NCBI RefSeq assembly: GCF_963921235.1
Contig: NC_086097.1
Coordinates: forward strand, 38,628,001 to 38,692,000
Direction of reading: 5' to 3'
DNA length: 64,000 nt
Origin: Mobula hypostoma
Taxonomy: Eukaryota
The translations under genes and the position numbers were made by a program. Positions 16,390-46,130 of the stretch are shown in pieces (position 1 is the first letter of the stretch; the number at the start of each line of letters is the position of its first letter). Below the pieces are notes generated by a model. That model was not told the DNA's origin. It saw only the letters and a list, made by a program, of their open reading frames with translations, and ran no database searches.

Positions 16390-16930
16390 GACCATAACAT
16401 GTAGGGGCATAGTTAGACCATTTGGAACATCAAGTCTGCTTTGCCATTCTATCATGGTTGATTTATTATCCCTCTCAACCCCATTCTCATGCTTTCTCCC
16501 TGTAACCTTTGACCCTCTGACTAATCAAAACCTACCAATCTCTGCTTTAAATATAGCCAATGACTTGGCCTCCACTCCTGTCTGTGGCAATGATTCCACA
16601 GGTTCACTACGCTCTGGCTGAAGAAATTCCTCCTCATCTCTGTTCAAAATGCATGACCCTCTATTCTAAGACTATGTCCTGTGGTCCTACACTCCCCCAC
16701 CAAAGGAAACATCCTCTCCGCATCCACTCTATCTAGGCCTTTCTATATTCGATAGGTTTCAATGAGATCCCATCTCATCCTTCTAAACTCCACTGAGTAC
16801 AGATGCTGAGCCTTTAAACACTCCTAGGTTAACCCTTTCATTCCTGGAATCATTCTCGTCAACCTCCTTTGCACCCTCTCTAATGCCAGCACATCTTTTC
16901 ATAGATTAGGGGCCCAAAACTGCTCAGTAA
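16390..16930 (-). mobile_element. CR1 3'-end fragment
   Basis: Same 3'UTR/ORF2-end sequence as 20070-20620. Confidence 0.75.
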
Positions 16931-19471: not shown

Positions 19472-21247
19472 TATCAAGTCTACAATTGAAGATTTTTAAA
19501 AAACCTGCTGTTGCAGATGCTTATGCACAAGCCAAGTACAAATTCTACTGGAGATAAAATCTCAAGTGCCCACATGAATTATTTTCCATCAACTTATCTG
19601 GCACAACAACAGTGCAAAATAAGGTAAAATGGCACAGGTGTATCTGTACTGGGTATAAACAACATTGTGAGCAATCAATAGCAGCCGCTCCACAATCTAC
19701 AGGCTTATTTTTCAGCATATCATACACTAGCACTACCAGCAAGCCACAAGACCAACACTCTTCAATAAATGTGGAAGAGTTTGCCAAGACCAGCAACACT
19801 CATACCTGAAAATGAGATGCCAACTTGGTGAACCTGCAACATCTAACAAGATTTTTAATTAACAGAAAAAGCAACAAGCTGATCTAGTAGGTGAGATTAG
19901 ACCAAAAGATCATAAAACAAAAGAGCCCTTCTTTCTATTTGGCCCATCGAATCTGCTCCACCATTCCATCATGGCTGTTTTATTTTTCCTCCCAACCCCA
20001 TTCTCCTGCCTTCTCCCCATAACCTCTGAGACCTTTATTAATCAAGGACCTATCAATCTCTGTTTTAAGACCATAAGATATAGGAGCAGAATTAGGCTAC
20101 TTGGCCCATCAAGTCTGCTCCACCATTCCATCATAGCTGATCCAATCTTCCTCTCAGCCCCAGTCTCCTGCCTTCTCCCCGTATCCCTTCATGCCCTGAC
20201 CAATCAAGAATCTTTCAACCTCTGCCTTAAATATACATTCACACTTGGCCTCCACTGCTGCTTGTGGCAAAGAATTCCATGGATTCACTACTCTCTAGCT
20301 AAAGAAATTCTTCCTCCTCTCCATTCTAAAAGGACACCCCTCTATTCTGAGGCTGTATCCTCTGGTCTTAGACTCTCCCACCATAGGAAACATCCTCTCC
20401 ACTTCCACTCTATCAAGGCCTTTCATCATTTGATAGGTTTCAATGAAGTCACCCCTCATTCTTCTGAATTCTAGTGACTACAGGCCCAGATCCATCAAAT
20501 GCTCTTCATATGACAAGCCATTCAATCCTGGAATCATTTTTGTGAAGATCCTTTGAACCCTCTCCAGTTTCACCTCATCCTTTCTAAGATAAAGGGCCCA
20601 AAACTGCTCACAATATTCCAAGTGAGGCTTCATCAGAGCTTTATAAAGTCACAACATTACATCCTTGCTTTTATATTCTAATCCTCTTGAAATCAATGCT
20701 AACATTGCATTTGCCTTTCTTACCTCAGACTCAATCTGCAAATTAACCTTTAGGGAATCCTGCACAAGGACAACCAAGTCCCTTTGCACCTTAGTTTTTT
20801 GCATTTTCTCTCCAATTAGAAAATAGTCAATCCTTTCATTTCTTCTACCAAAGTGCATGACCATACACTACCTGATATCGTATTTCATCTGTGATTTCTT
20901 TGCCCATTCTCCTAATCTAAGACCTTCCGTAGCCTACTTCCTCAAAACAACCTGCCCCTCCACCTACCTTTATATCATTTGCAAGCTCTGCAGAAAAGCT
21001 ATCAATTCCATCATCCAAATCATTAATATATAACGTAAAAATTCGGTCCCAACACAGAGCCCGGTGGAACACCACTCATTACCAGCAGCCAACCAGAAAA
21101 GGCTCCCTTTATTCTCACTCCTTGCCTCCTGCCAATTGACCACTGCTTTCTCCATGCTAGAATCTTTCCTGTAAAACCATAGGCTCATAGCTTGTTAAGC
21201 AACCTTGTGTGGCAACTTTTTAAAGGCCTTCTGAAAATCCAAGTACA

Positions 21248-21946
21248 TGTAGCCCCCCGGGCCGCCGTCAGGATCACTCGGCTCGCTGTCGTCTAGGGAA
21301 ACAGCCTCGGTCCCGCCAAACTGGGTAATTCATTTGTGTGGATGCTGTGTGATGTACCCCACCCCGCCCAAATAACAGACAATACACCAGATGCAATTAA
21401 ATGATTTACAGTTTATAGATATTACTGGAACTATATGATTAAGAGAGAATAAAATATAGAAGGAAAATAAAAGGCGCCACACGTATCAAAGTTCAATCTC
21501 TTCGTGCACAAAACAGTTGGAGCTCAAGGACCTTCTTCTTCACCCTGCGACCCCTCGGACCACCTCGACCGGCCGCCTGGGACCAACAACGGTGGTCGAC
21601 CAGACACTCCACACGAGTCCGTCTCCGTCTCCGTCTCCTCGCCGAACGCTCTCCTCGGGGTCCGACCCCGTTAGCGGACTCACAGCACCTCGTCCATCCT
21701 CTGTCTCGCTCTCCCGCCTTCTGCCCCAAAACCGTGCGCATACAGTATCTTCAAATACCCCAAAACCATAACAACTATCCCAATTGGTTAATAACATATT
21801 TCTTATCACACTCTAAACCAAAACAAGCTGCTAGCGCAAACTTTCTCAGCATTTAACACAACAAAGCCACGTTCCCCAGATTAACATAACAAAGAGGCCA
21901 TTTTAATTAGCCTCCGCAGTAACATAAAAGTCGAAACCCCCTTACA
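21248..21946 (-). repeat. 3' LTR of element A
   Basis: Near-identical to 24653-25343; TGTA...TACA termini. Confidence 0.95.
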
Positions 21947-22228
21947 CTCTCCCCGCCATCAAATAAAGTCATGTCCTCATGACTTCTAAATAACTCGCCA
22001 ACCAGTCCTGCAGACACACAACACACACATACACAGATACACACAGTGCCAGTGCTCTCCAAACAGTGGACCTTACGCCCGTCCCACGGGTGTTACATAG
22101 GCCAACCTATCTGGGAGCTTCTTAACCCTTCGAGACCTCCGTACCCCCTCACCTAAACCCAAAAGGCTCAGACACTACTAGGGATACCTCCGGCCTGTTT
22201 GCCAACTCTTCTCTCACTCAGGCCACCA

Positions 22229-24631
22229 CTACAGCTCGGAGCCCCTTGTCCCGTGCCCCGCCTCTCCTCCTTCCCGATCCTGCCGCAACTCAGACTGCCC
22301 ACAGCTAACCCTCCCCACTACACCTGACTCAGTGGGAGAAGGGCCAAAGGTCACTTCCTCAATCACGGGGAAGTTAGCGAAAGACAGCATGTACCACATG
22401 TGCAGCACATCATCCTTCGAATCCGTATCCTTCCTCATTCCCTCGATCGGTAGCTGCTGTTTAAGTTTCTCCAAACTGAAACATTTAGCCGAGGCTACCC
22501 CTTCACCCTCCTGCAGTTGAGACGTCAGCTTCTTCGGGGACTCCTTCAACTCTCGCCACAGCCTCAGCAGTTCCGACTCAGGGTTCCTGGCCATCTCAAT
22601 CTGGGACGCAGTTACCCCACCAGCTTCTTCCACCCTGACCTGAAAAGCAGCAGTTAAAAGATGTTCAGCCTCCGGTTGTTTCTTCCTGAGGACGTCTTCC
22701 AGGTCAACTTCCAGTTTTCCCACTTCATTTAAACTCGCGATAGTCATCTTCAGGTTCCTTTCAAGCATCCGCCTCCCTTTTCCGAGATCTGTCCTCCACT
22801 TCTTCACCTCTTCGGGAGTGTAGTCAAACTCCCCTCCCTGGGCTCTCGGTTTTCTGTTGACCTTAGTCAGAACACTTCCTTGATCTTCCCCAACTTGCAA
22901 GTCTTCCAATCTGTTTTGAATCGACGTCTTGAGTTTCTGCTGATCTCTTCGAAGGTGGGTCATTGTTTCTTCTTGCTGGATTAATTCATCAGTACATGAC
23001 CACAGTGTGGTGCAAATCCCCTCTCTTCCCTGTGTCTCATTCAGGTTGACGACCTGGGTTTCCATCCCCTGGTCCACCACCGTCTGTTCCAACACCAGGA
23101 AGTTCAACTGGTATGTCGGGTCATTTTTCTCACATTGCACCAAACTCCTCCGGCCAAAAACTCCTCCACATTTGACACTTCGCTTCGGTCGCCCGGGCTC
23201 AGCCACTCGCCTCACTTCATAGTCCCCACAGGCGAATCCAAGCTCTAGGTGGTCATCCACATACGCCAAAACTCCACACACCTTCACTTCCCCAATGGTC
23301 TTCCTCATGCCCCGCGAGAAGGATGCAGGGGCTCCGGATATGCCCTTGGGCATCTTTTCAGATCAGAAGAATTCTAGGAAATTAGTAACGGCTGTCTTCG
23401 GCTCAACAGCCGCACTCCTCGGGATCTGGCAACATCCACTCCTCAGATGCAGCACATTAAACAACGTCACATAATCCGCACACACGCTGCCTTCATTTTC
23501 CACGCTGCTAGGGTCCAGTTGCCGCGACCTCTCTCTCACTGAGGTGTCTTCAGCGGTCAACTCCCCTCCCTCGTGATAGTTTGGAGCACCTACTAAGAGG
23601 GTCTCACCCTCAGCTACTTTCCCCAAACCGTACCACCGCTGGGTCTCGTTTAAATTCGGTACTGGCTCAAGGCTGCTACACACGTCCTCGGAAGCAACTC
23701 GACACACTGGATGTCCAGAAAATGCCTCCATAACTTCCAGGGTCATTAACCAATTATCGTCTTCTGGATAACTACTGCCACTAGTACTCAAAGTCTCCGG
23801 TGCCCTTGCGGTTGTCAAGGATAAATGCTTCAGACACCGGTTTTAAAACGAACTGTACAACAACTTGATCTGTGCCCCGGGGTCGAGGATAGCTTTAGCA
23901 TCGCTTCCCTCTATCCATAGCGACACCCTGGGGCGTGGCCCCTCTAAGCCTGCAGGAATAGGGTCTTTTCCTTTCGGAAGTTCAGTGGTACATTGCTGGG
24001 AACGTGCTTCCCCAGAGAACACAAGCCGTTCCCCCCATTGGGCCTCCACTAAGTTTCCCGACAACTCTCTGATCAGCTGAACAACTGAAGGAGGGGCTGA
24101 TCCCCTGAAATGATCCCCCTGGCACTGCAAGCAATTTAGCCGCCCTCCTAGCCAGAGAAGACACACTGAAAACTTTCCCCCCTCTTTCAAATAACTGACA
24201 GCTGTCACTACGGTGTAAGTGAACCTGACAGCTCTAACACCGTCACCAGCCCGCCTACTCAAACTTTCAACCAATCCCTGTCGCTCTCCCTCAACCAAGC
24301 TCTGCCACTCATCTAACAACTGCGAGATCCGCTCCGCCCACGTCTCACACGCCTCCGCCCCTCTTGGGGTGGACACAATCCCAAACACCAGGCAGAGCCT
24401 GCCAGAGCTAGAACATTTATTCGCAGACCCTACCTCCAAATCAGACCACTCTTTCCTCTCTCTCCCAACCGCATGGACAGCCCCAAGTGCCACCTCCAAC
24501 TCATCAATGCTAGTCTGAACTCGAACAAAGACCTCACCCACCATGCATACAGCAATCACCAGCAAATAACCCACAGAGACACACATTACAGATTCAAACA
24601 GGGCACCCACACAGCATACCAGCAGGCTCAA
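22229..24631 (-). pseudogene. Chimeric gag-PR-RT-myosin rod-pol tail reading frame with two in-frame stops (23843-23845, 23363-23365)
   Basis: ORFs 23843-24631, 23363-23818 and 22229-23353 share one frame. Segments align to element B gag/pol and to the sarcomeric myosin heavy-chain rod. Confidence 0.8.
22442..23146 (-). pseudogene. Transduced sarcomeric myosin heavy-chain (MYH16-like) coiled-coil fragments
   Basis: LEDLQVGEDQGSVLTK ~ [43 protein letters not shown] ~ KKxRxDLERAKRKLEGDLK / LKMTIDNLNE; RVEEAGGVTASQIEM ~ RLEEAGGATSAQIEM; AKCFSLEKLKQQL ~ AKCASLEKTKQRL. Confidence 0.85.
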
Positions 24632-24652
24632 TCCCGGACAAAGCCCACACCA

Positions 24653-25343
24653 TGTAGCTCCCCCCCCGGCCGCCCTCAGGGTTGCTCGGCTCGCTGTCGT
24701 CTAGGGAAACAGCCTCGGCCCCGCCAAACTGGATAATTCATTTGTGTGGATGCTGTGTGATGTACCCCACCCCGCCCAAATAACAGACAATACACCAGAT
24801 GCAATTAAATGATTTACAGTTTATAGATATTACTGGAACTATATAATTAAGAGAGAATAAAATATAGAAGGAAAGTAAAAGGCGCCACACTTATCAAAGT
24901 TCAATCTCTTCATGCACAAAACAGTTGGAGCTCAAGGACCTTCTTCTTCACCCTGCGACCCCTCGGACCACCTCGACTGGTCGCCTGGGACCAACAACGG
25001 TTGTCGACCAGACGCTCCACACGAGTCCATCTCCGCGCCGAACGCCCTCCTCGGGGTCCGACCCCGTTAGCAGACTCACAGCACCTCGTCCATCCTCTGT
25101 CTTGCTCTCCCGCCTTCTGCCCCCAAACCCCGCGCATACAGTATCTTCAAATACATCAAAACCATAACAACTATCCCAATTGGTTAATAACATATTTCTT
25201 ATCACACTCTAAACCAAAACAAGCTGCTAGTGCAAACTTTCTCAGCGTTTAACACAACAAAAGCCGCATTCCCCAGATTAACATAACAAAGTGGCCATTT
25301 TAATTAGCCTCCGCAGTAACATAAAAGTCGAAACCCCCTTACA
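24653..25343 (-). repeat. 5' LTR of element A
   Basis: Near-identical to 21248-21946; adjacent to the PBS. Confidence 0.95.
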
Positions 25344-26336
25344 TACACAACATCAACCAATTCTCCTTTGTCTATCCTGCTTGGTGTTTCTTCAAAGAAT
25401 TCCAATAGATTTGTCAAGCAAGATTTTCCCTTGAGGAAACCATGCAGACTATTTTATAATGTGCCTCCAAGTACCAAGACCTCATCCTCGATAATCGACT
25501 CCAACATATTCCCAATCACTGAGGTCCGACTAACTGGCCTATAATTTCTTTTCTTCTGCCTCTGACCCTTCTTGAAGTGTGGAGTCACACTTGCAATTTT
25601 CCAGTAATCCAGAACCATTCCAGAATCTAGTGATTCTTGAAAGACCATTACTAATGCCTGCACAATCTCTTCAGCCACCTCTTTCAGAACCCTGGGGTGT
25701 ACACCATCTGGTCTAGGTGACTTCAAACCTTTCGGCTTCCCAACAACCTTCTCTCTAGTAATGGATTTTTAATACGCTTCATGACTCCTGACACCTGGAA
25801 CTTCCACCATACTTCTAGTATCTTCCACAGTGAAGACTGATGCAAAATATTTATTCAGTTCATCCACTATTTCATTGTCTCCCATTACTACCTCTCTAGC
25901 ACTGTTTTCCAGTGGTCCAATATCCACTCTTGTCTCTCTTTTACACTTCATCTATCTGAAGAAACTTTTGGTATCCTCTTTAATATTATTGGCTAGCTTA
26001 CTTTCATGTTCCATCTTTACATTCTTATTGACCTTTTGTTGGTTTTTAAAAACTTCCCAGTTCTAACTTCCCACTAATTTTTGCTCTATTATATGCTCTC
26101 TCATTGGCTTTTATGTTGTCTTTGACTGCTCGTTAGCCACAGTTGTGTCATTTTTCCTTTATAATACTTCTTCCTTTTTGGAATGTATATATCCTGTGTC
26201 TTCCAAATTGTTTCCTGAAATTCCAGCCATTGCTCCTCTGCTGTCATCCCTGCCAGTGTTCCTTTCCAGTCATTTCTGGCCAACTCTTCTCTCATGCCTC
26301 TGTAATTCCCTTTACTCCACTGAAATACTGATTATA

Positions 26337-31541: not shown

Positions 31542-33576
31542 GAAGAACAGCATGTTCTGATCAGTAGCTCTAAGCAGCAGATTTCCATTTTCCATGTACA
31601 TAAACGCTCCTCGATTCTCCACCTGGTCTATTAATAGTCATTTCATATTCATGTTTCTTTTTTCAGGATTCACCGATAATTGGAATGTTTTTCCAAGCCC
31701 ACTCATCAAAGCCATTCAAATTCTGAAGACCTCAATAAGGATTTTCATGGTCACATTTTCAAAAAGATAACAAACCCTAGACTGACTTTCTTCACAGCTG
31801 TTTCCTCAAGTTATTTATTATGCAGGTATTTTAATTCAACATTCTTATCACAGAAGATTGTTGGTTGAACAACTACTTCAAAAAACTTGAGCACAGAAAT
31901 CTAGTCTAAAGCTCCTATGGAGTAATGAATCATTGAAGGCAGAGTTATTTGAATGAGATGTCAAGAGCCGAAGGATCCATGTGGTTGCTCAGGTGGACCC
32001 ACAGATCCCATGATAATTCAAACAACATGGTGTTTACCCTGTAGACCTTACAACATCACAAAAAATATATTTATCTCTCAAGTAGATCACATGACATTGC
32101 TCTGGAACTGAATACCGACTTAATACGAAGTAAACTATACTTGCAATTATTTTCAAGTCAAATTTCACCTATTATGCAAATATGCAACTGTTGGTGAGAC
32201 AGTTTGCAGTTCACACGGATTCTGATTTATCCAAACAGTGAAGGCAAGTAACTAATTAAAGCAAAGAAAACAATAAGTATTCTAACATAAAAATCATAAT
32301 TCACTTCTGCAGTTCATTTGTTTTGAAATTATAATTGATGAAGAAGGCAACGAAAATGGCAGCAGGATACACTTTAAACAGTCAGGTGTAACGCATGGAT
32401 GGTTAGCAGAAGAAGTTTACTGAGAGATCTAAGGTGGTGCATTTTAGTAGAAAAATGAAAAGAGGTGTATAGAATAAAGGTTATTATTTTAAAACAGAGA
32501 AACAAATGGATTCAGAGATATCTATACACCAATCACTGAGATGACAGAGCAGGTTAAATAAATGGTTAACAAAGGATCACAGTTCTGGGCTTTACCAATA
32601 GAAAAATAATATAAAAGCAGGGAAATTACTCTGAACCATTTCAAAGAGTTGGTCTGTAACTTAAGCTTTACATTAATCTCTGGTTGCCACGTCATAGGAA
32701 GGATATGAAGATATGAGAGGGGTCCAGAAAGGATTATTGAGAATGGTTTATAGATGAGGGAGCACAGTTAGAATAACAGAGATGCTGGGACTTTTTTTCT
32801 TTTAAAATATTGAGGGTAGATTTCACAGGCATAAAAAACGATGAGGTGTCAATAATGGCAGAAGGTTGAGGACCAGATGTGATGGATATAAAATAAAAGG
32901 GAAGGAGAGAGTTAAGTATTGTATGAGGAGAAGTAATTTAAAAATCTAGTGGTGGTGTAGGATTCTCAGTAATACTAATTGTAATGTTAATTGTTAAGGC
33001 TGACAAAATGGCTTCTCTGTAATGTTAACTGCTGAGTAAGGGGTTCTCTGTAGCAGCATGTTTGGGTTATAATTAGTGATAACAGGACTTGTATTCATTT
33101 GCTAGCCAATGGAAGTCATGTTATTCTATCTGCATGTGCGGGAGCCGGAGAAGCGCAGGTTTTTGGTTGAGAAGAGAAGAGGTCAGACGTGAGTCAAGCG
33201 CTCTGGTAGATCACCGGGAATGATCCCAGCCGAGGGTCGACAGAGTTCAGAGGAGATCGATGGGAGGAAAGGATACCAAATTTTGTGAGCTCCAACGAAT
33301 TATCTATGCAGAGAATTGACAAATTTACTGATTTGCGCCTTTATTTTATTTGTTTCTACTAACCCATCACCGAGAAATAATTATAATGTGTAATTATTTA
33401 CTGGCCTATTGTGTACTGTCTGATATTGTGGGCTTGTACCGGGGTGCAATCACACAGTATCCACACCAACGCGATTACAGAGTTGGTGGGGTCAACGCCA
33501 GTTTACCCTAGACAAACGGGAGTTAAGTGGGACGTAGTCGCTACATTGTGGGGGCTCGTTCAGGATTTGAATTGTG

Positions 33577-36500
33577 ATGGATACTGTGTAATTTGCCTGG
33601 TTTAAATTAGTGGAGGTGGACCCCGATAAGATTGAATCCTGGTGTGAGATCGAAGTAGTACCGGTTAATCATGCCTGTGCATTAAGTGGGGTGGATATGC
33701 GTACCTCAGAGGAAGTGTTAATTCAATGGTTGAGTACGGTTAAAGCTGTAGGTAAGGTTGAAATCGTAGCCAGAAAGTTTGGTCAAATGTCGGATTCAGG
33801 CTTTGTGTTAGTTCAGACTAGTGCTGATGTCAAGCAGCAGGACTGCCAGCATCTATCGGTGACCCCAGTGAGGTGGGGCAGTGGGGCATGCACATTGTCA
33901 TGGAGGGAGGGTCTGATGGGACACCAGAGGAGTTGCCTGATGCTGGGGGCAGAGATTTTAGAGATCGGGTCCTATTGTTTCTGAGGGATGAAGGAAGGGA
34001 GTGGTCAGATTTGGAAGATTTAATTAGTCCCCATCCCCCACAGATAATTACTCCCCATCCCCAACGAAAGGGTGAGGGCTCTGAGTTGGCCTCAGCCATT
34101 AACTCCCTGGTGAACAAGGCAGCGGGTCCTCGTCAGAAGTTGAGAGTTCTCTCAGGGAGGACTCCCACCCCTGAGGGTGAAGACGGTTATGAGTCATGGA
34201 TACAGCACGTGTCTCAGCTGCTAGGTAAGTGGCAGTGTTCTGAGGAAGAAAAGAGACAGTGATTGGTTGAATGTTTGAGGGGGGTGGCGGCTGATGTACT
34301 AAGAGGCATGAAAGTTAATCAGCCTTATGCTTCTCTGACTGAGTATCTAAAAGCATTAGAGGAGGCTTTTGGTCTGGCGGGGAGCACGGTGGAGCTTTTA
34401 GGGGGGCTTCGGAACCTGCGTCAGGAGAAAGGGGAAAAGCTTTCCGAGTATCTTTTCTGGATAGAACGACAGCTAAATTGTTTGAGGTGCCGGGGGGGTC
34501 ATTTTGGGGACTGAGGTGGATCAGATAAGTATAGACCAGGTAGCCAGGGGCACACAGAGGAATGACATGATTGCTATGGGTCTCCGGCAGTCCCGTAGAA
34601 CATGGTTTCCCCCCCCCCCCATCCTTTGTTCAGTTGCTTAGAGAGGTGAGGGAGGAGGAGGATGCATTGGAGTCAGAAGAGGGCTCCGTGAGTATGGTGC
34701 AGTCCTCAATAGTAGCCCTTTATGGTGGAGTGACCGGGGCCAGCTCCACTCAGGAGATAGTAAAGGGGGTCACGGCAGATGGGGTTCCTCTGCGTGAAGG
34801 GACTAGCAGAGAGTCCCTCCCTGAAGGGACAGATGGCACTGAGGCCAGGCAGAGGCCGGGGTCCCGCGAGACGAGGCGTGTGTTGTAACTGTGGGGAAGA
34901 GGGGCACTTCAGGTGGGAACGTGAAAGGCAGGGGGCCCCCTCGGAGAGCAAGTCCACAGATATCCCAGCAGGGAGAGGGGTCGGGAAACTTAGAGGAGAC
35001 CCAGTGAGGTAATGGCCTGGAGTCTCCAGGAAAACACGTTCCCAACAATGTGCCACAGGACCCCCGGGAGGAAAAGACCCTATCCCAGAAGGATTGGTGG
35101 GACCCCGATCCAGTGTGTCGATTCGGATAGAGGAAATAGATGCAAAAGCCATTCTCGACACTGGGTCGCAGGTCATGTTACTGTACTGTTCATTCTACGA
35201 TCAGTATTTGCAGCATTTTCCCTTGACACCCTTCAGTGCACTGGAAATTTGTGGTATCAGCTTTGGTGATTACCGTACGACGGTGATCTGTCAGTGAAGC
35301 TGCAGTTCTTGGAGGCTGAGGTGGGAGTGCCTGCAGCTCATGAGGCCTTGGTGCTGGTTTGCCCGGACCCTGTTGAGACTGGAGGTGTGTCCATTCTGGC
35401 AGGGACCAACACCCCTATTGTACAGAGGCTCCTGGGGGCCTGCAAGGAGCAGGAAGGTGAGGACTTTTTGGAGACCCTGTTGGTGCACCCAGTGTTTCAA
35501 GCTGCTTTTAAGGAAGTGAGTGGCCGCACTGGGATAGACTCGAAATTTAAAAGAGGAACTGTGTGGTGTGCCCAGTCGAAGCCCAGGGTGGTACGACCCG
35601 GGGAAGTAGCAAGAGTGATGGGGACCCCCAGATTTCCCGGGGAGCCTGAGGGTGAAGCCCTTTTAGTGGACTTTAGGAAGATCTCGAGGGGGAATTGAGA
35701 TTTCCAGTTGGGGTGCTGGTGAGACCCAAGTTGCAGAAGCCCTCAGTGGCACGCAGGATGGTGGTGATCATCAGGAACGCTATGAAAAGGGAGGTCACCT
35801 TTAAGCGAGGGATGCCCTTGGCGCAGTTGTTCCCGGAGACAGTGATGCATAGTGCCCCCGTGAGGCTCGCTGGGGGAGAGCTATGGAAAACAGGGGTAAG
35901 TTGACCACACAGGCTTTTAACTCTGGGGCCTCACCTGTGCCGGAGCGTTGGAAGCAGAGGCTGGTGGAGAAGATGTTGATGCTGAAAGATGTTTTCTCCC
36001 TTGACCAGTTTGATGTGGGTTGTTCCAGGAGCACTCGCCACACCATCCGAGTGATTAAGGACATCCTGTTTCGAGAGAGGTCGCGGCGACTGGCCCCTGC
36101 CGACGTGGAAGACGTGCGGCAGCATTTGTGTAAGTTGAAGGAAGCCGGGATCATCGTGGGGTCCTGAAGACCTTATGCGTCCCCAATAGTAGTGGCCCAG
36201 AAGAAAAATGGGAAGATTCATATGTGTATGGATTACAGGACCCTGAACGGGCGCACCGTCCCTGACCAGTATACGGTCCCAGGGTCAAAGACACGCTGGC
36301 CTGTCTGAGTGGGGCGAAGTGGTTCAGCGTACTGGCCTTGAGGAGTGGATATTACCAGATCCCCATGAGTGAGGCCAATAAAGAGAAGACTATTCATATG
36401 CCCTCAGGGATTTTTCCAGTTCGAAAGGATGCCCCAGGCCATATCGGGAGCCGCTGCCACCTTTCAGAGGGTCATGGAGAAGGCGGTGGGGGATATGAAC

Positions 36501-39190
36501 TTGCTTGAAGTGCTGGTATATTTTGATGACCTGATAGTATTTGGATCCACCTTGGAAGAACACAAAGCAAGGCTAATGGAAGTGCTGAACCGACTGAAGG
36601 ATGAAGGATTAAAGTTTTCCTTGGACAAATGTCAGTTCTGCCAGATGTCTGTTAGCTATGTTGGATACGTCATCTCTCGGATTGGAGTAGCTACTGACCC
36701 GGCTAAGATCGAAGCGGTGACCAGTTGGCCAAGGCCCCAGACTGTGAGTGCTCTGCTCTTGTTCTTGGGGTTCTGTGGATACTACCAGAGATTCGTGAAG
36801 GGCTACGCCAAGGTGAGTCTCTCCTTGACCCAGCTTCTGCATGGCTACCCTCCTCTGGGACGGAAAGGGAGGAGAGGATGGGAGGTTGGAGAATATTTGA
36901 ACCCGTCAGAGCCCTTCGGACAGAGATGGGATGACAAATGTGAGGAGGCTTTTCAGTCGTTGAAAAAGATGCTGACTCAGGCTCCAGTGCTGGCTTTTGC
37001 GGACCCCGATTGCCCTACGGGCTACACACCAATGCCAGCCGTGAGGGATTAAGGGCCATCCTGGATCAGGATCAGGGCTCCAGGCTGAGGCACGCAGCAT
37101 TTGTCAGCCAGAGTTTGTTGCCCTCTGAGAGAAACTATCCCACCCACAAGTTGGAGTTCCTGGCATTGAAATGGGCGGTGGTGGATAAGCTGAGTGACTA
37201 TCTCTACGGGGCCAAGTGTGAGGTGAGGACGGACAACAACCTGCTCACCTACATCCTGACCTCGGTGAAACTGGATGCCACAGGCCATCGGTGGCTGGCA
37301 GCGTTGTCTATATATGATTTCAGCCTGAAGTACCGGCCAAGGAGCCGGAATGTCGATGCGGATGCTCTGTCCCGACAGAGGCACGAGGAACTGGAGAGGG
37401 ACGAGGAGTGGGAGAGTGTTCCTCTGTATCCAGGGTGAAGGCCATGTGTCAGTTTGCTATCACCGTGCAGGCCGAGAAAAAGGAGAGGCCAGATCGCGTT
37501 GTGGACTCATTGGGGGCGTCCAGTGACGCTCTACCCCTAATTTACTGTGACCTGATTGCTGTGAAGACCACGCAGCTGCCAGAGTTAAGCTTTGGGGAAG
37601 TGGCCGCCACTCAGCGAGATGACTCAGGCATTGGCCCTGTCTGGCACGCAATTGAAGAGGGGGATGTGACACGGGTGGAGAAGACAAAACATGTTTCAGT
37701 GTCTCTGTTACTGAGACAACGGTTTCAGTTGAGGTTGAAGAACCAAATTTTATACCAGGTAACATCACCCCCGGACCGACCGCGGTGTTGGCAGCTGGTC
37801 CTGCCTGAGAAGTATCGGAAGGTTGTGTTGAAGTCACTCCATGATGACTCTGGACATTTGGGGGTGGAAAAAACCTATGGGTTGCTCAGGGACTGGTTTT
37901 ACTGGCCCCGAATGAGGTCAGAGGTCAAAGAGCACTGCAAGTCCTGCATTCATTGCATTCGCTGGAAGATGCCGCCTGGGCAAGCTGCTCCTCTGTCACA
38001 CTTGCAGAGTGCGGGGCCTTTGGACCTGGTGTGTATGGATTTCCTGGCCATAGAACCTGATGCCAGCAGCAAGGTGAATGTCTTAGTCATCACTGACCAC
38101 TACACCGGGTATGCTCAAGTTTTCCCTACCAAGGATCACAGGGTGATTACGGTGGCAAAAGTGCTATGGGAGAAGTATTTTGTGCATTATGGCCTTCCAA
38201 GGCGGATACATAGTGACCAGGGATGGGACTTTGAGAGTAAGCTCATCTATGAGTTACTGGGCATGCTGGGGGTTGAGAAATCGAGGTTCACGCTCTATCA
38301 TCCGCAGGGCGATCCCCAGCCGGAAAGGTTTAATCGGACGTTGCTAGACATACTCGGGACTCTGGAGATCAGCAAAAAGAACAGATGGAGTTGACATATT
38401 GGGCATCTAGTTCATTGTTACAACTGTACACGCAACGAAGCTACTGGATACTCGCCCTATTATCTGATGTTTGGGCGTGAAGCAAGGTTGCCCATTGACC
38501 TCTGTTTCGGGACTGACGCGGGTGAGATATCGCCAAAGCCTTACTTGAAGTATGTGTCTGATATGCAGAAAGAGCTGAAAAGGGCTTATGAGTTGATTGG
38601 GGAGGCGGCTGCCTGGCAGAATTGGGGAAATAAGAGGAGGTATGACCAAAAAGTAAAGTTCTCTCAACTCCTACCGGGAGACCGAGTCCACATGAGGAAT
38701 TTGGGATTACCTGGAAAGCACAAGTTGACTGATCGCTGGGCGGCCACACCCGATGTGGTGGAGAGTCAGATGCCAAATTTACCAGTTTTCCGGGTGCAGC
38801 CCGAGAATGGAAAGGGGCCTGTCAAGATTCTCCATCGGAATCACCTGTTGCCCCTGGGGCAAGACGTACAGGTAGAGCGGGAGCCTGACACGGCGGCTGC
38901 ACCTAGTACAAGGACTCTGCGTACCCGCGGGGTGATGGAAAAGCCCACCCTGGAAGAGACGGGCCTGGGCCCAGCCCCTGTGGGGAATATTGATTCGAAG
39001 GATGACGATTTGGACGATTGGTACCCGATGCCGTTCGCTGATGCCCCCGTAATGGAGGAAGAGACTCCTGGCCCTTCCCCCACTGGGTTAGATGGGGTAA
39101 GGGGGGCTAGTGATGGGCAGTCGGTGGTACCGCAGGGCACTGAAGGAGAGGAAATGTGGGGTCCGAACGAGAAACAGACAGTTCCAGGGT
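33577..39190 (+). pseudogene. Gypsy gag-pol (frameshifted; PR-RT-RH-IN order)
   Basis: Consecutive ORF fragments 33610-33984, 33873-34262, 34263-34514, 34571-34888, 35094-35297, 35294-35698, 35883-36167, 36369-37052, 37010-37438, 37408-38394 and 38467-39190. Confidence 0.9.
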
Positions 39191-39191
39191 G

Positions 39192-39608
39192 TCAGGTACC
39201 CCATCTGTTACTTATTTTTATGCACACATTCTTTCTCTCACTCTCCTTTTTCTCCCTCTGTCCCTCTGAATATACCTCTTGCCCATCCTCTGGGTTCCCC
39301 CGCCCCTTGTCTTTCTTCCCGGACCTCCTGTCCCATGATCCTCTCGTATCCCCTTTTGCCTATCACCTGTCCAGCTCTTGGCTCTATCCCTCCCCCTCCT
39401 GTCTTCTCCTATCATTTTGGATCTCCCCCTCCCCCTCCAACTTTCAAATCCCTTACTCACTCTTCCTTCAGTTAGTCCTGACGAAGGGTCTCGGCCTGAA
39501 ATGTCAACTGCACCTCTTCCTACAGATACTGCCTGGCCTGCTGCGTTCACCAGCAACTTTGATGTGTGTTGCTTGAATTTCCAGCATCTGCAGAATTCCT
39601 GTTGTTTG
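39192..39608 (+). mobile_element. Penelope-like pLTR fragment inserted in element B
   Basis: 12-bp TSD AGTTCCAGGGTG at 39180-39191 and 39609-39620. Reverse complement of the pLTR at 51580-51985. Confidence 0.85.
39469..39510 (+). ncRNA. Minimal type I hammerhead ribozyme motif (Penelope-associated)
   Basis: cagttagtc-CTGACGA-agggtctcggcct-GAAA-tg-TC-aactg: core boxes, short stem II and rudimentary stem III, with CpG-type decay. Confidence 0.7.
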
Positions 39609-40599
39609 AGTTCCAGGGTGCAGAGGGGTTTGAGTGACCGCTCGCGAGAGGGTTCACCACTTCACTTGAAAGGGTTTCCCTGTAGTGTCTGAGGTGGAAG
39701 AGTTAGAAGAGGGGGTACACAGGTCTCAGAGAAGTAGAACCACCCCCCCCCCGAGAGGTCGGCCTATGTAACACCTGGGGAACAGGGTGTGGTCTCCACT
39801 GTTTTGGGGAGCTATGTCACTGGTTTCTGTACTTGGATTGGGCTCTGAGTTTTGCAGGAAGGGTTGGCAAATTATTTGAACGTCATGAGGGCATGACTAA
39901 ATTTGGTGGGGGGAGAATGTAGGGTTCTCAGTAATACTAATTGTAATGTTAATTGTTAAGGCTGACAAAATAGCTTCTCTGTAATGTTAAATGCTGAGTA
40001 GGGGATTCTCTGTAGCAGTATGTTTGGGTTATAATTCATTTGCTAGCCAATGGAAGTCATGTTATTCTATTTGTATGTGCGGGAACCGAAGGAAAAGCAT
40101 GGGCTTTCGGTCGAGGAGAAGAGAAGAGGTCGACCGTGAGTCGAGTGCTCTGGTAGATCACCAGGAGTGACCCCAGCCGAGGGTCGACAGAGTTCGGAGG
40201 AGATCGATGGGAGGAAAGGATACCGGATTTCGTGAGCTCCAACAAATTATTTGTGCACAGAACTGATAAATTTACTAAGTTGGTACCTTTATTTTGTTTT
40301 GTTTCTACTAACCCATCACCGAGAAATAATTATAAAGTGTAATCATTTACTGGCCTGTTATGTACTGTCTGATATTTTATGTCGTGGGCTTGTACCGGGG
40401 TGCAAACACACAGTATCCACACCAACGCGATTACAGAGTTGGAGGGGTCAACACCAGTTTACCCTCAATGAATGTCAAGTGGGGCATAGTTGCTACAGTG
40501 GCAATCTGGAATTCAATCTTACAGATATGGTGGAGGTGGGTTCCATTTTGACACAGAATTGGATAAATATCATGCAGAGAAAGGAAATGGGTGAAACTA

Positions 40600-45734: not shown

Positions 45735-46130
45735 AGTCATAGGGGATCCCAATATTCAAGTAGCTTGGGGAAGTCAGGTTGGTGCTGGATTCTAGGAGGA
45801 TGTTTCCTATGGCGGGAGAGTCTATGACCAGAGGGCAGACCCTCAGAATAGAGGGGCATTCTTTTAGAAAGGAAACAAGGAGGAATTTCTTTAACCAGAG
45901 AGTGGTGGATCTGTGAAATTTGTTGCCACAAGCAGCTGTGCAGGCCTAGTGTCTATGTATATTTAAGGCGGAGGTTGACAGATTCTTGATTGGTCAGGGC
46001 ATGAAGGGATACATTGAGAGGGCAGGAGAATGGGGCAGAGAGGAAAATTGGATCACCCATGATGAAATGACAGAGCAGACTCGATAGGCCAAATGGCCTA
46101 ATTCTGCTTCGATGTCTTATGCTCTTCTTC
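45735..46130 (+). mobile_element. CR1 3'-end fragment
   Basis: aggaatttctttaaccagagagtggtggatctgtg...gccaaatggcctaattctgct 3'UTR. Confidence 0.75.

Follow-up and report, generated by a model that had tools for sequence, protein, structure and literature searches.

The stretch of the genome of Mobula hypostoma analysed here (64,000 nucleotides of contig NC_086097.1, positions 38,628,001 to 38,692,000; hereafter, the window) contains a non-autonomous long terminal repeat (LTR) retrotransposon of the Ty3/gypsy type, which belongs to a family of batoid rays, and which carries a segment homologous to the rod of a sarcomeric myosin heavy chain in the place of its own RNase H and integrase sequence. 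A fragment of a myosin heavy-chain messenger RNA (mRNA) was very probably captured by an ancestral element, and then amplified as part of a hybrid family. The source appears most likely to have been MYH16 or a close relative of this gene, and the copy in the window is one old, dead member of the family.

An intron-free myosin segment inside an LTR element

The last open reading frame (ORF) of the element (22229–23362, minus strand; P0001, 377 amino acids) is present in the window, and its residues 121–236 align without gaps to residues 979–1094 of MYH4 in a phmmer search of the PDB, forming a block of 116 amino acids (E 5.4e-6). At a threshold of E ≤ 1, this search recovered 14 sequences, comprising 11 myosin II heavy chains, one MYH7 chimera, and two unrelated sequences at E 0.51. 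Other stretches of P0001 correspond, in both the PDB and the MYH7 alignments, to the parts of myosin that contain RLEEAGGATSAQIEM and KKLAQRLQ..AKCASLEKTKQRL, and the pairwise BLASTP comparison of the segment with a teleost MYH7 returned E 9e-15. A fuller copy of the insert (241 amino acids) matched a fragment of MYH16 at E 2.1e-14 in a HMMER search of 1.84 billion proteins, and the rod of a teleost MYH7, used as a query against the host genome, recovered dozens of scattered, intron-free matches, with 32–38% identity over 190–250 amino acids. At the nucleotide level, the identity between the insert and a host canonical gene is approximately 55, 64, and 42% at the first, second, and third codon positions, respectively. 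An initial annotation of the window, made from its letters alone, had described a coiled-coil frame within an LTR element, similar to the myosin II rod, with an ungapped block and further colinear blocks, and these were recovered in the alignments, with the exception of one of the colinear blocks. Judging from these comparisons, the likeness is specific to the sarcomeric myosin II rod, and is not that of a generic coiled coil.

The window also contains a related element (element B, 33169–40282, plus strand), a degraded gypsy-type copy in which the reverse transcriptase (RT), RNase H, and the zinc-finger and core domains of the integrase are spread across several frames, in this order (Pfam RVT_1, E 1.1e-17; RT_RNaseH_2; Integrase_H2C2, E 4e-20; and rve, E 5.7e-11), between LTR pieces (approximately 33169–33335 and 40116–40282) that are 88% identical. 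The myosin-carrying element, which retains only remnants of these domains, aligns colinearly with element B on either flank of the insert, and is approximately 70–78% identical to it in their common parts, with 650 nucleotides (nt; 23073–22423) standing in the place of the 1807 nt (37185–38992) of the RNase H and integrase of element B, a replacement that the initial annotation had anticipated. Downstream of the myosin segment, the C-terminal tail of the integrase resumes (TDSKDD...), and pol sequence of the element flanks the segment on both sides, in the window copy and in an older copy, L070. The captured portion was originally set at 22442–23146, with the motif SLVQCEKND (residues 73–81) being read as the counterpart of SLLQEKND in myosin. 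This assignment stands for 22442–23065, and fails for the remainder, which is element sequence: the motif lies within 23073–23147, which aligns with 37111–37185 of element B, and is continuous with RNase H in L070.

The exons of three canonical host myosin genes (at C68, C40, and C2), together with three exons of the host MYH16, were mapped for comparison with the insert. In the host canonical genes, exons b–f are separated by introns. The host MYH16 (G000:C36:112705420-112732235, minus strand; loci L071–L073) has an acceptor site directly before IEMNRKRE, which marks an SQ|IEMN intron specific to MYH16, given that the three canonical paralogues have a single unbroken exon at this point. The element copies are continuous across the c/d (window position ~22828/22829) and d/e (~22683) intron positions, both of which are defined by the canonical paralogues only, and across the position of the MYH16 intron (22600/22601), while the long-form copies are also continuous across the b/c exon junction. 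Intron-free host sequence is found, then, inside the element, in the place of element genes, and the earlier suggestion that the segment crosses conserved myosin intron positions is confirmed for both types of gene. The loss of MYH16 from the rays was considered when a whole-protein search recovered no MYH16 exons, and was discarded when a tail-only query located the host gene at C36:112.705-112.732 Mb; its rod exons are placed at approximately C36:112.719-112.733 Mb. Among the canonical genes, eight or more encoding sarcomeric myosin heavy chains are arranged in tandem at C68:15.30-15.90 Mb, and single genes are found at C2:160.88-160.94 Mb and C40:17.11-17.17 Mb. The host genome also contains intron-free matches to Myosin_tail_1 with several internal stops, the longest single piece spanning 407 profile positions (G000:C18:48745314-48746731, minus strand; C50:30689110-30689772; C184:304888-305403; C157:172388-172903), which have the appearance of processed pseudogenes derived from a myosin of the non-muscle type, and have no relation to the element family.

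The element occupies 21248–25343 of the window, on the minus strand, with LTRs that are 93.6% identical over 705 alignment columns (16 gaps), and that end in TGTAGC..CTTACA, which is a pattern of the TG..CA type. The sequence TACA flanks both sides of the element, although the length of this target-site duplication (TSD), read here as 4 bp, is slightly ambiguous, in that the LTR itself ends in TTACA. The 2.7-kb interior is a single reading frame interrupted by two in-frame stops (24700–23843, 23842–23363, and 23362–22229). The features of the element, in its own sense, are:

25344–25347, no strand: TSD TACA, upstream, from direct sequence comparison
24653–25343, minus: 5' LTR, 93.6% identical to 21248–21946, with TG..CA ends
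24625–24652, minus: putative primer-binding-site region adjoining the 5' LTR, with a TGG start (sense TGGTGTGGGCTTTGTCC...), read from the sequence alone
23843–24700, minus: gag-like part of the long frame, ending at an in-frame stop; weak Pfam PNMA match, and patches with ~74–78% nucleotide identity to element B
23363–23842, minus: protease-like and N-terminal RT remnant in the same frame, with the second in-frame stop at its end; contiguous frame, open over the same stretch in copies L063–L065
23066–23362, minus: RT remnant (YVDD, 23252–23263) and start of RNase H (NDPTYQLNFLVLEQTVVD, 23072–23125), including SLVQCEKND; from blastn against element B
22442–23065, minus: myosin (MYH16-like) rod-derived segment, in frame; from the myosin alignments and the comparison with host introns
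23009–23065, minus: start of the myosin segment
About 23008, minus: site of a 129-nt deletion within the myosin segment
22679–22993, minus: myosin segment, block 1
22637–22678, minus: myosin segment, remnant of the "exon e" region
22538–22636, minus: myosin segment, block 2 (RVEEAGG..RELKES)
22442–22537, minus: myosin segment, block 3 (PKKLTS..KQQLPIE)
22229–22441, minus: short linker, followed by a remnant of the integrase C-terminal tail (TDSKDD..., 22280–22426) to the stop codon; blastn pairs 22423–22279 with 38992–39136 of element B
21947–21975, minus: putative polypurine-tract region directly upstream of the 3' LTR (sense ...GGCGGGGAGAG), read from the sequence alone
21248–21946, minus: 3' LTR, from the alignment of the LTR pair; the similarity of 28 of 29 other copies ends at its outer edge (21241–21257)
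21244–21247, no strand: TSD TACA, downstream, from direct sequence comparison

The paired TG..CA LTRs and the short TSD are those of a Ty3/gypsy-type element, and the blastn comparison with element B pairs 23445–23230 with 36339–36552, and 23147–23073 with 37111–37185. The Pfam matches of the internal domains are faint: the gag-like ORF matches PNMA at E 5.3e-4 (19.9 bits, under the cut-off of 25), the RT remnant of the last ORF matches RVT_1 weakly (E 0.12), and the Pfam scan of the protease-like stretch (23363–23842) returned no family, while a DPGA motif was noted by eye in copies of the element. The window copy lacks 129 nt of myosin-derived sequence (43 amino acids, AELSAQKCR...TLRSC) that is retained by other copies. 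This copy is dead, as demonstrated by its two in-frame stops, the 129-nt deletion, LTRs that are approximately 6% apart, and many private substitutions in comparison with the reads of four organisms.

The element is surrounded by other repeats. An ORF fragment (25454–25768, minus strand) similar to the RT of a long interspersed nuclear element (LINE) of the CR1/L2 type adjoins the 5' LTR, and a longer relative (435 amino acids) is found in locus L058. Direct repeats are located just downstream of the element, at 19935–20230 (162-nt spacing, 78% identity), and as a 231-nt pair at 16593–16823 and 20274–20504 (77%), with an inverted partner at 45796–46126; these probably represent other repeat families.

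Copies, subfamilies, and relatives in other rays

When the 3.48-Gb assembly was searched with an 801-nt probe taken from the window, 869 candidate places were recovered, and all 40 of the 40 places scored were 95–100% identical to the probe over its full length. A second probe, specific to the 129-nt piece of the long form, recovered 456 candidates, and each of the 40 that were scored was 94–100% identical to it. The family is dispersed over many contigs, and 28 of the 29 copies fetched lose their similarity to the window at 21241–21257, the outer edge of the LTR, beyond which the flanks are unrelated; the remaining copy is truncated. The mobile LTR element of the initial annotation, together with the multiplicity of copies that it had called to be counted, is borne out by these data. 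The sequence of events that it had proposed, transduction followed by transposition, is also supported, with the amendment that the capture is old and common to the whole family, rather than an event in the history of the window copy.

The window copy belongs to the subfamily that lacks the 129-nt piece. In three of the copies fetched (L063–L065), the whole frame is open, over 677–724 amino acids, and includes the gag-like and protease-like regions, the RT and RNase H remnants, the insert, and the integrase tail. Copy L070 (C5:224562600-224565400), of an older subfamily, has kept more of the RNase H than the window copy, and its insert is 48–49% identical to shark MYH16 over 227–243 amino acids, from approximately residue 865. 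Its internal deletion differs from that of the window copy, with ...VEELEE being joined straight to AEKAAGAAQAKC..., while both copies have the same 3' junction with the element sequence, at approximately 38982–38992 of element B; the integrase tail of L070 is recovered with 61% identity over 33 amino acids in a tblastn search with ORF 38395–39576 of element B. The least diverged copies are of the kind found at C5:224563668, C91:53683461, C64:46020300, and C116:4526811. In the window family, block 2 (RVEEAGG...RELKES) meets block 3 (PKKLTS...) where MYH16 has ELEES and ELEET, which fits a deletion that may have arisen by template switching between short repeats. Further variants of the insert are found in M. 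hypostoma, Hemitrygon akajei, and two other proteins, including a fusion of the RNase H FEVE to TEKQNS, and the retention of KKKLEISSVNTKLEAEQSL, while the Hemitrygon proteins end in the same KQQLPI..NTDSKDD junction. All the element-derived sequences form one clade in the tree, with 100/100 support. The longer and less diverged insert of L070, its different deletion, and the shared 3' junction point to what would be one old capture, followed by repeated deletions.

The library-wide HMMER search with the fuller copy recovered 53 proteins at E ≤ 1e-3. Species names, which were taken from ten of these proteins (one of them a lungfish myosin), identify annotated relatives in Mobula birostris and M. 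hypostoma (92% identity), Hemitrygon akajei (61%), Hypanus sabinus (57%), and Narcine bancroftii (43%). Contigs from the runs of four differently labelled organisms cover 30 of the 30 bins of 22100–23500, with loose ends at 23008–23010 that read into the long form. Public annotations label several of the element ORFs automatically as "myosin-16-like", "myosin heavy chain, skeletal muscle-like", or similar, and this naming inflates the apparent size of the myosin gene families in ray genomes. Public gene models from other rays (among P0016, P0019, and P0057) fuse the myosin-like piece of the element to unrelated N- or C-terminal sequences, and others are named as myosins; these look like annotation chimeras to which this repeat family has given rise.

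Source gene and route of capture

The assignment of the insert to MYH16 in the initial annotation is sustained by similarity rankings, and is not sustained by nesting in the tree. Among the true myosins recovered in the library-wide search, the highest-scoring, P0015 (E 2.1e-14), matches a part of pig MYH16 with 100% identity, and the MYH16 group has the top score for 12 of the 14 element-derived sequences, the other two being a tie and a canonical myosin. When the least diverged relative (residues 78–216 of the Narcine protein) was used as the query, ranks 1–78 were all of the MYH16 type, that is, either named MYH16 or also found at the top of the list for pig MYH16, with 101–132 bits, followed by two lamprey entries, and the first MYH7B, at rank 81, with 92 bits; the list includes a batoid MYH16 protein from Leucoraja. 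The element and MYH16 share a number of features that are absent from the canonical myosins (DLKMTI..LNEME, EDEQSL, ELL.L.REL, and RLQEAEEAAEAAQA).

Other results weigh against MYH16 as the source. In the maximum-likelihood tree, the element clade attaches to the branch that separates MYH16 (0.14) from the canonical myosins (0.38), and the approximately unbiased (AU) test rejects the nesting of this clade both in chondrichthyan MYH16 (four sequences, p 0.0155) and in elasmobranch MYH16 (three sequences, p 0.0026), although nesting among the host canonical genes is rejected more strongly (p 0.0006 and 0.0004). The three canonical host paralogues are indistinguishable as sources, with 33–36% identity each. 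There is some chance, albeit a minor one, that the gene captured was another sarcomeric paralogue from near the stem of MYH16, either a paralogue since lost, or the divergent host gene at G000:C68:14.708-14.737 Mb, which is 52–74% identical to the tail of shark MYH16, and the rod of which is not part of the tree. While the attachment of the clade outside MYH16 and the AU tests would suit such a gene, the scores of at most 92 bits for MYH7B and the canonical myosins, the predominance of MYH16 among the best matches, and the shared motifs speak for MYH16, and long-branch effects are possible in the tree, given the known tendency of fast-evolving rows to be drawn toward a basal position. Taken together, the comparisons point to MYH16 or one of its close relatives as the most likely source, with long-branch distortion in the tree, and MYH16 proper is considerably the more probable of the two. 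The capture itself would be in doubt if the likeness were that of a generic coiled coil, an assembly artefact, or an insertion nested in a myosin pseudogene. The check recommended by the initial annotation, a search with Myosin_tail_1, would have failed on its own, as this Pfam profile has no match to the window ORF at E ≤ 1, nor to the fuller copy L064 at E ≤ 0.01; the Narcine relative reaches 28.9 bits, under the cut-off of 38.1, and the 724-residue frame of L065 has no Pfam match at E ≤ 0.01. A word-indexed search of longer proteins with the window segment returned only two myosins at E ≤ 1e-3, and the identity of the young family to any myosin is only 28–37%. An origin of the likeness in a generic coiled coil, an artefact, or a pseudogene is nevertheless improbable in the extreme, considering that the significant PDB matches are to myosin II only, that the colinear matches take in the RLEEAGGATSAQIEM motif, that the older L070 insert reaches 48–49% identity over 227–243 amino acids, and that identical junctions occur in hundreds of copies and in the reads of four organisms. 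An alternative account of the presence of the family in several genera of rays is that the element passed horizontally between hosts, and was not inherited from a batoid ancestor in which a single capture took place. LTR elements are known to move between species, and the evidence from other species consists of protein-level relatives only. Transfer is improbable, all the same, in view of the drop in identity to the window family from Mobula through Hemitrygon and Hypanus to Narcine, an order that presumably follows the relatedness of these rays, and of the position of Narcine as the sister of all the other element sequences in the tree.

The capture that is preferred here would have begun with a spliced sarcomeric myosin heavy-chain mRNA, most likely that of MYH16 (rod residues ~840–1430), which would have been copied into the pol of the ancestral element, in sense and in frame, downstream of the RNase H, replacing most of the integrase. 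The route may have been through RNA, either as a read-through or chimeric transcript from an element located near a myosin gene, or as a co-packaged mRNA, with the joins being made as the reverse transcriptase switched templates. In L070, the 5' junction falls within a 14-nt GA-rich overlap at the start of an MYH16 exon, and this overlap fits an RNA-based capture of the kind proposed. The same overlap also suggested that the 5' junction was formed by splicing into the MYH16 exon, an origin that is not claimed here, as the Narcine relative extends further toward the N-terminus of the myosin than L070, which leaves the original 5' junction unfixed. The hybrid would have retained the LTRs, primer-binding site, polypurine tract, and gag, and would presumably have been copied in trans, with the enzymes of autonomous relatives. 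Integrase is absent from the myosin-carrying family, yet this family has hundreds of dispersed copies, and related integrases in open frames of up to 1401 amino acids elsewhere in the genome represent possible helpers, although no helper element with matching LTRs was identified, which weighs against this part of the scenario. Different lineages may then have shed different internal parts of the insert between short repeats (ELEE/ELEE, for example), as the hybrid reached hundreds of copies and several genera of rays.

Maintenance of the frame and comparison with known captures

The divergence between the subfamilies is approximately 0.3–0.55 substitutions per site, and every deletion seen in the element copies preserves the frame. 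It is reasoned, rather than computed, that a frame would hardly stay open by chance through this number of changes, given the many codons that are one step from a stop, and the frame appears to have been maintained in the active lineage. The evidence of selection on the protein is weak, and selection on the coiled coil itself is unproven. The ratio of nonsynonymous to synonymous substitutions (dN/dS) is 0.47–0.57 between subfamilies, in comparison with 0.60–0.67 between young copies of one subfamily, which is a small difference. The heptad a/d positions are 55–60% hydrophobic in the element copies, against 65–68% in the myosins, and 17–21% at the other positions. Among the residues that have changed, hydrophobic residues were kept hydrophobic at 58 of 100 a/d positions and 32 of 57 positions elsewhere (p 0.87), while changes from polar to hydrophobic are more common at a/d (21 of 50, against 68 of 314; p 0.004), in a comparison that pools lineages that are not independent.

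On balance, and by no wide measure, it is probable that the insert is a functionless passenger, which remains in frame either because the active lineage needs a long frame, to avoid the decay of its genomic RNA, for example, or because the bursts of amplification are recent. The slight decrease in dN/dS, the equal retention of hydrophobic residues at a/d and elsewhere, the many different internal deletions tolerated by the lineages, and the prolines and glycines present within the former rod of the window ORF are all consistent with a passenger, whereas the long open frames of L063–L065, the in-frame deletions, the hydrophobic a/d positions, and the pooled enrichment of polar-to-hydrophobic changes are less easily accommodated. 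A tentative reading, and a rather unlikely one, is that the MYH16-derived coiled coil, fused behind the gag and pol remnants, is a working self-association module, through which the protein or RNA of the element rides in the particles of autonomous relatives, and the frame of which would have been preserved from a time before the divergence of the ray lineages. Batoid divergence dates to well over 100 million years ago, and if this reading were to prove true, no transduced host sequence known from a vertebrate retroelement would be longer-lived.

Both retroviruses and plant elements provide known examples of host genes captured by LTR retroelements: acutely transforming retroviruses transduce cellular genes, and plant LTR retrotransposons, such as Bs1 of maize, carry fragments of host genes. 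To our knowledge, captures by vertebrate retrotransposons are rarely documented, and the known cases are low-copy. The open-access papers and preprints searched yielded no account of an LTR element that carries a fragment of myosin or MYH16. The ray element resembles Bs1 in being a non-autonomous LTR element with intron-free host fragments between gag and the 3' LTR, amplified as a family, and differs from it in being found in a vertebrate, in carrying a single long fragment in frame with gag-pol remnants, and in the divergence of this cargo to approximately 35% identity while the family stayed active. The processed myosin pseudogenes made by LINEs are likewise intron-free copies of a segment of a myosin mRNA, although the ray segment is flanked by pol and LTRs in all the copies examined, rather than by the poly(A) tail and separate target duplication of a retrocopy. 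An origin as a LINE-mediated processed pseudogene is not supported, with pol sequence on both flanks in the window copy and in L070.

In birds, 107 host-derived domains have been described in 254 endogenous retroviruses (ERVs) of 121 species (PMC12287698), and the LTR retrotransposons of bdelloid rotifers have gained extra ORFs beyond gag and pol (PMC5408684). The likeness of the rotifer elements to the ray family lies in the gain of coding modules beyond gag and pol by an LTR retrotransposon, while the bdelloid elements are autonomous, and have enzymes or env-like genes as their modules, in a separate ORF3, and the ray insert is a host structural piece that replaces pol domains in a defective element (PMC5408684). 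The closest parallel is with retroviral transduction and with the avian ERVs (PMC12287698), with which the ray family shares spliced host coding sequence inside LTRs, the replacement of part of pol, an in-frame fusion, and a defective, presumably helper-dependent element. Unlike these retroviruses and ERVs, the carrier in the rays is a Ty3/gypsy-type retrotransposon of cartilaginous fish, in which no env was seen, and the cargo is a structural coiled-coil fragment, rather than a growth-control gene, while one capture is present in hundreds of copies, is common to several ray genera, and is of apparent great age. A single capture from a muscle gene can be traced here through subfamilies with different deletions, in hundreds of copies and several genera of rays, which provides a natural series for the study of the evolution of a transduced sequence in an active element, through template-switch deletions, the maintenance of the frame, and the decay of the coiled coil. 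The event is of the same kind as retroviral transduction, and differs from the known cases in its carrier, its cargo, the scale of its amplification, and its apparent age.

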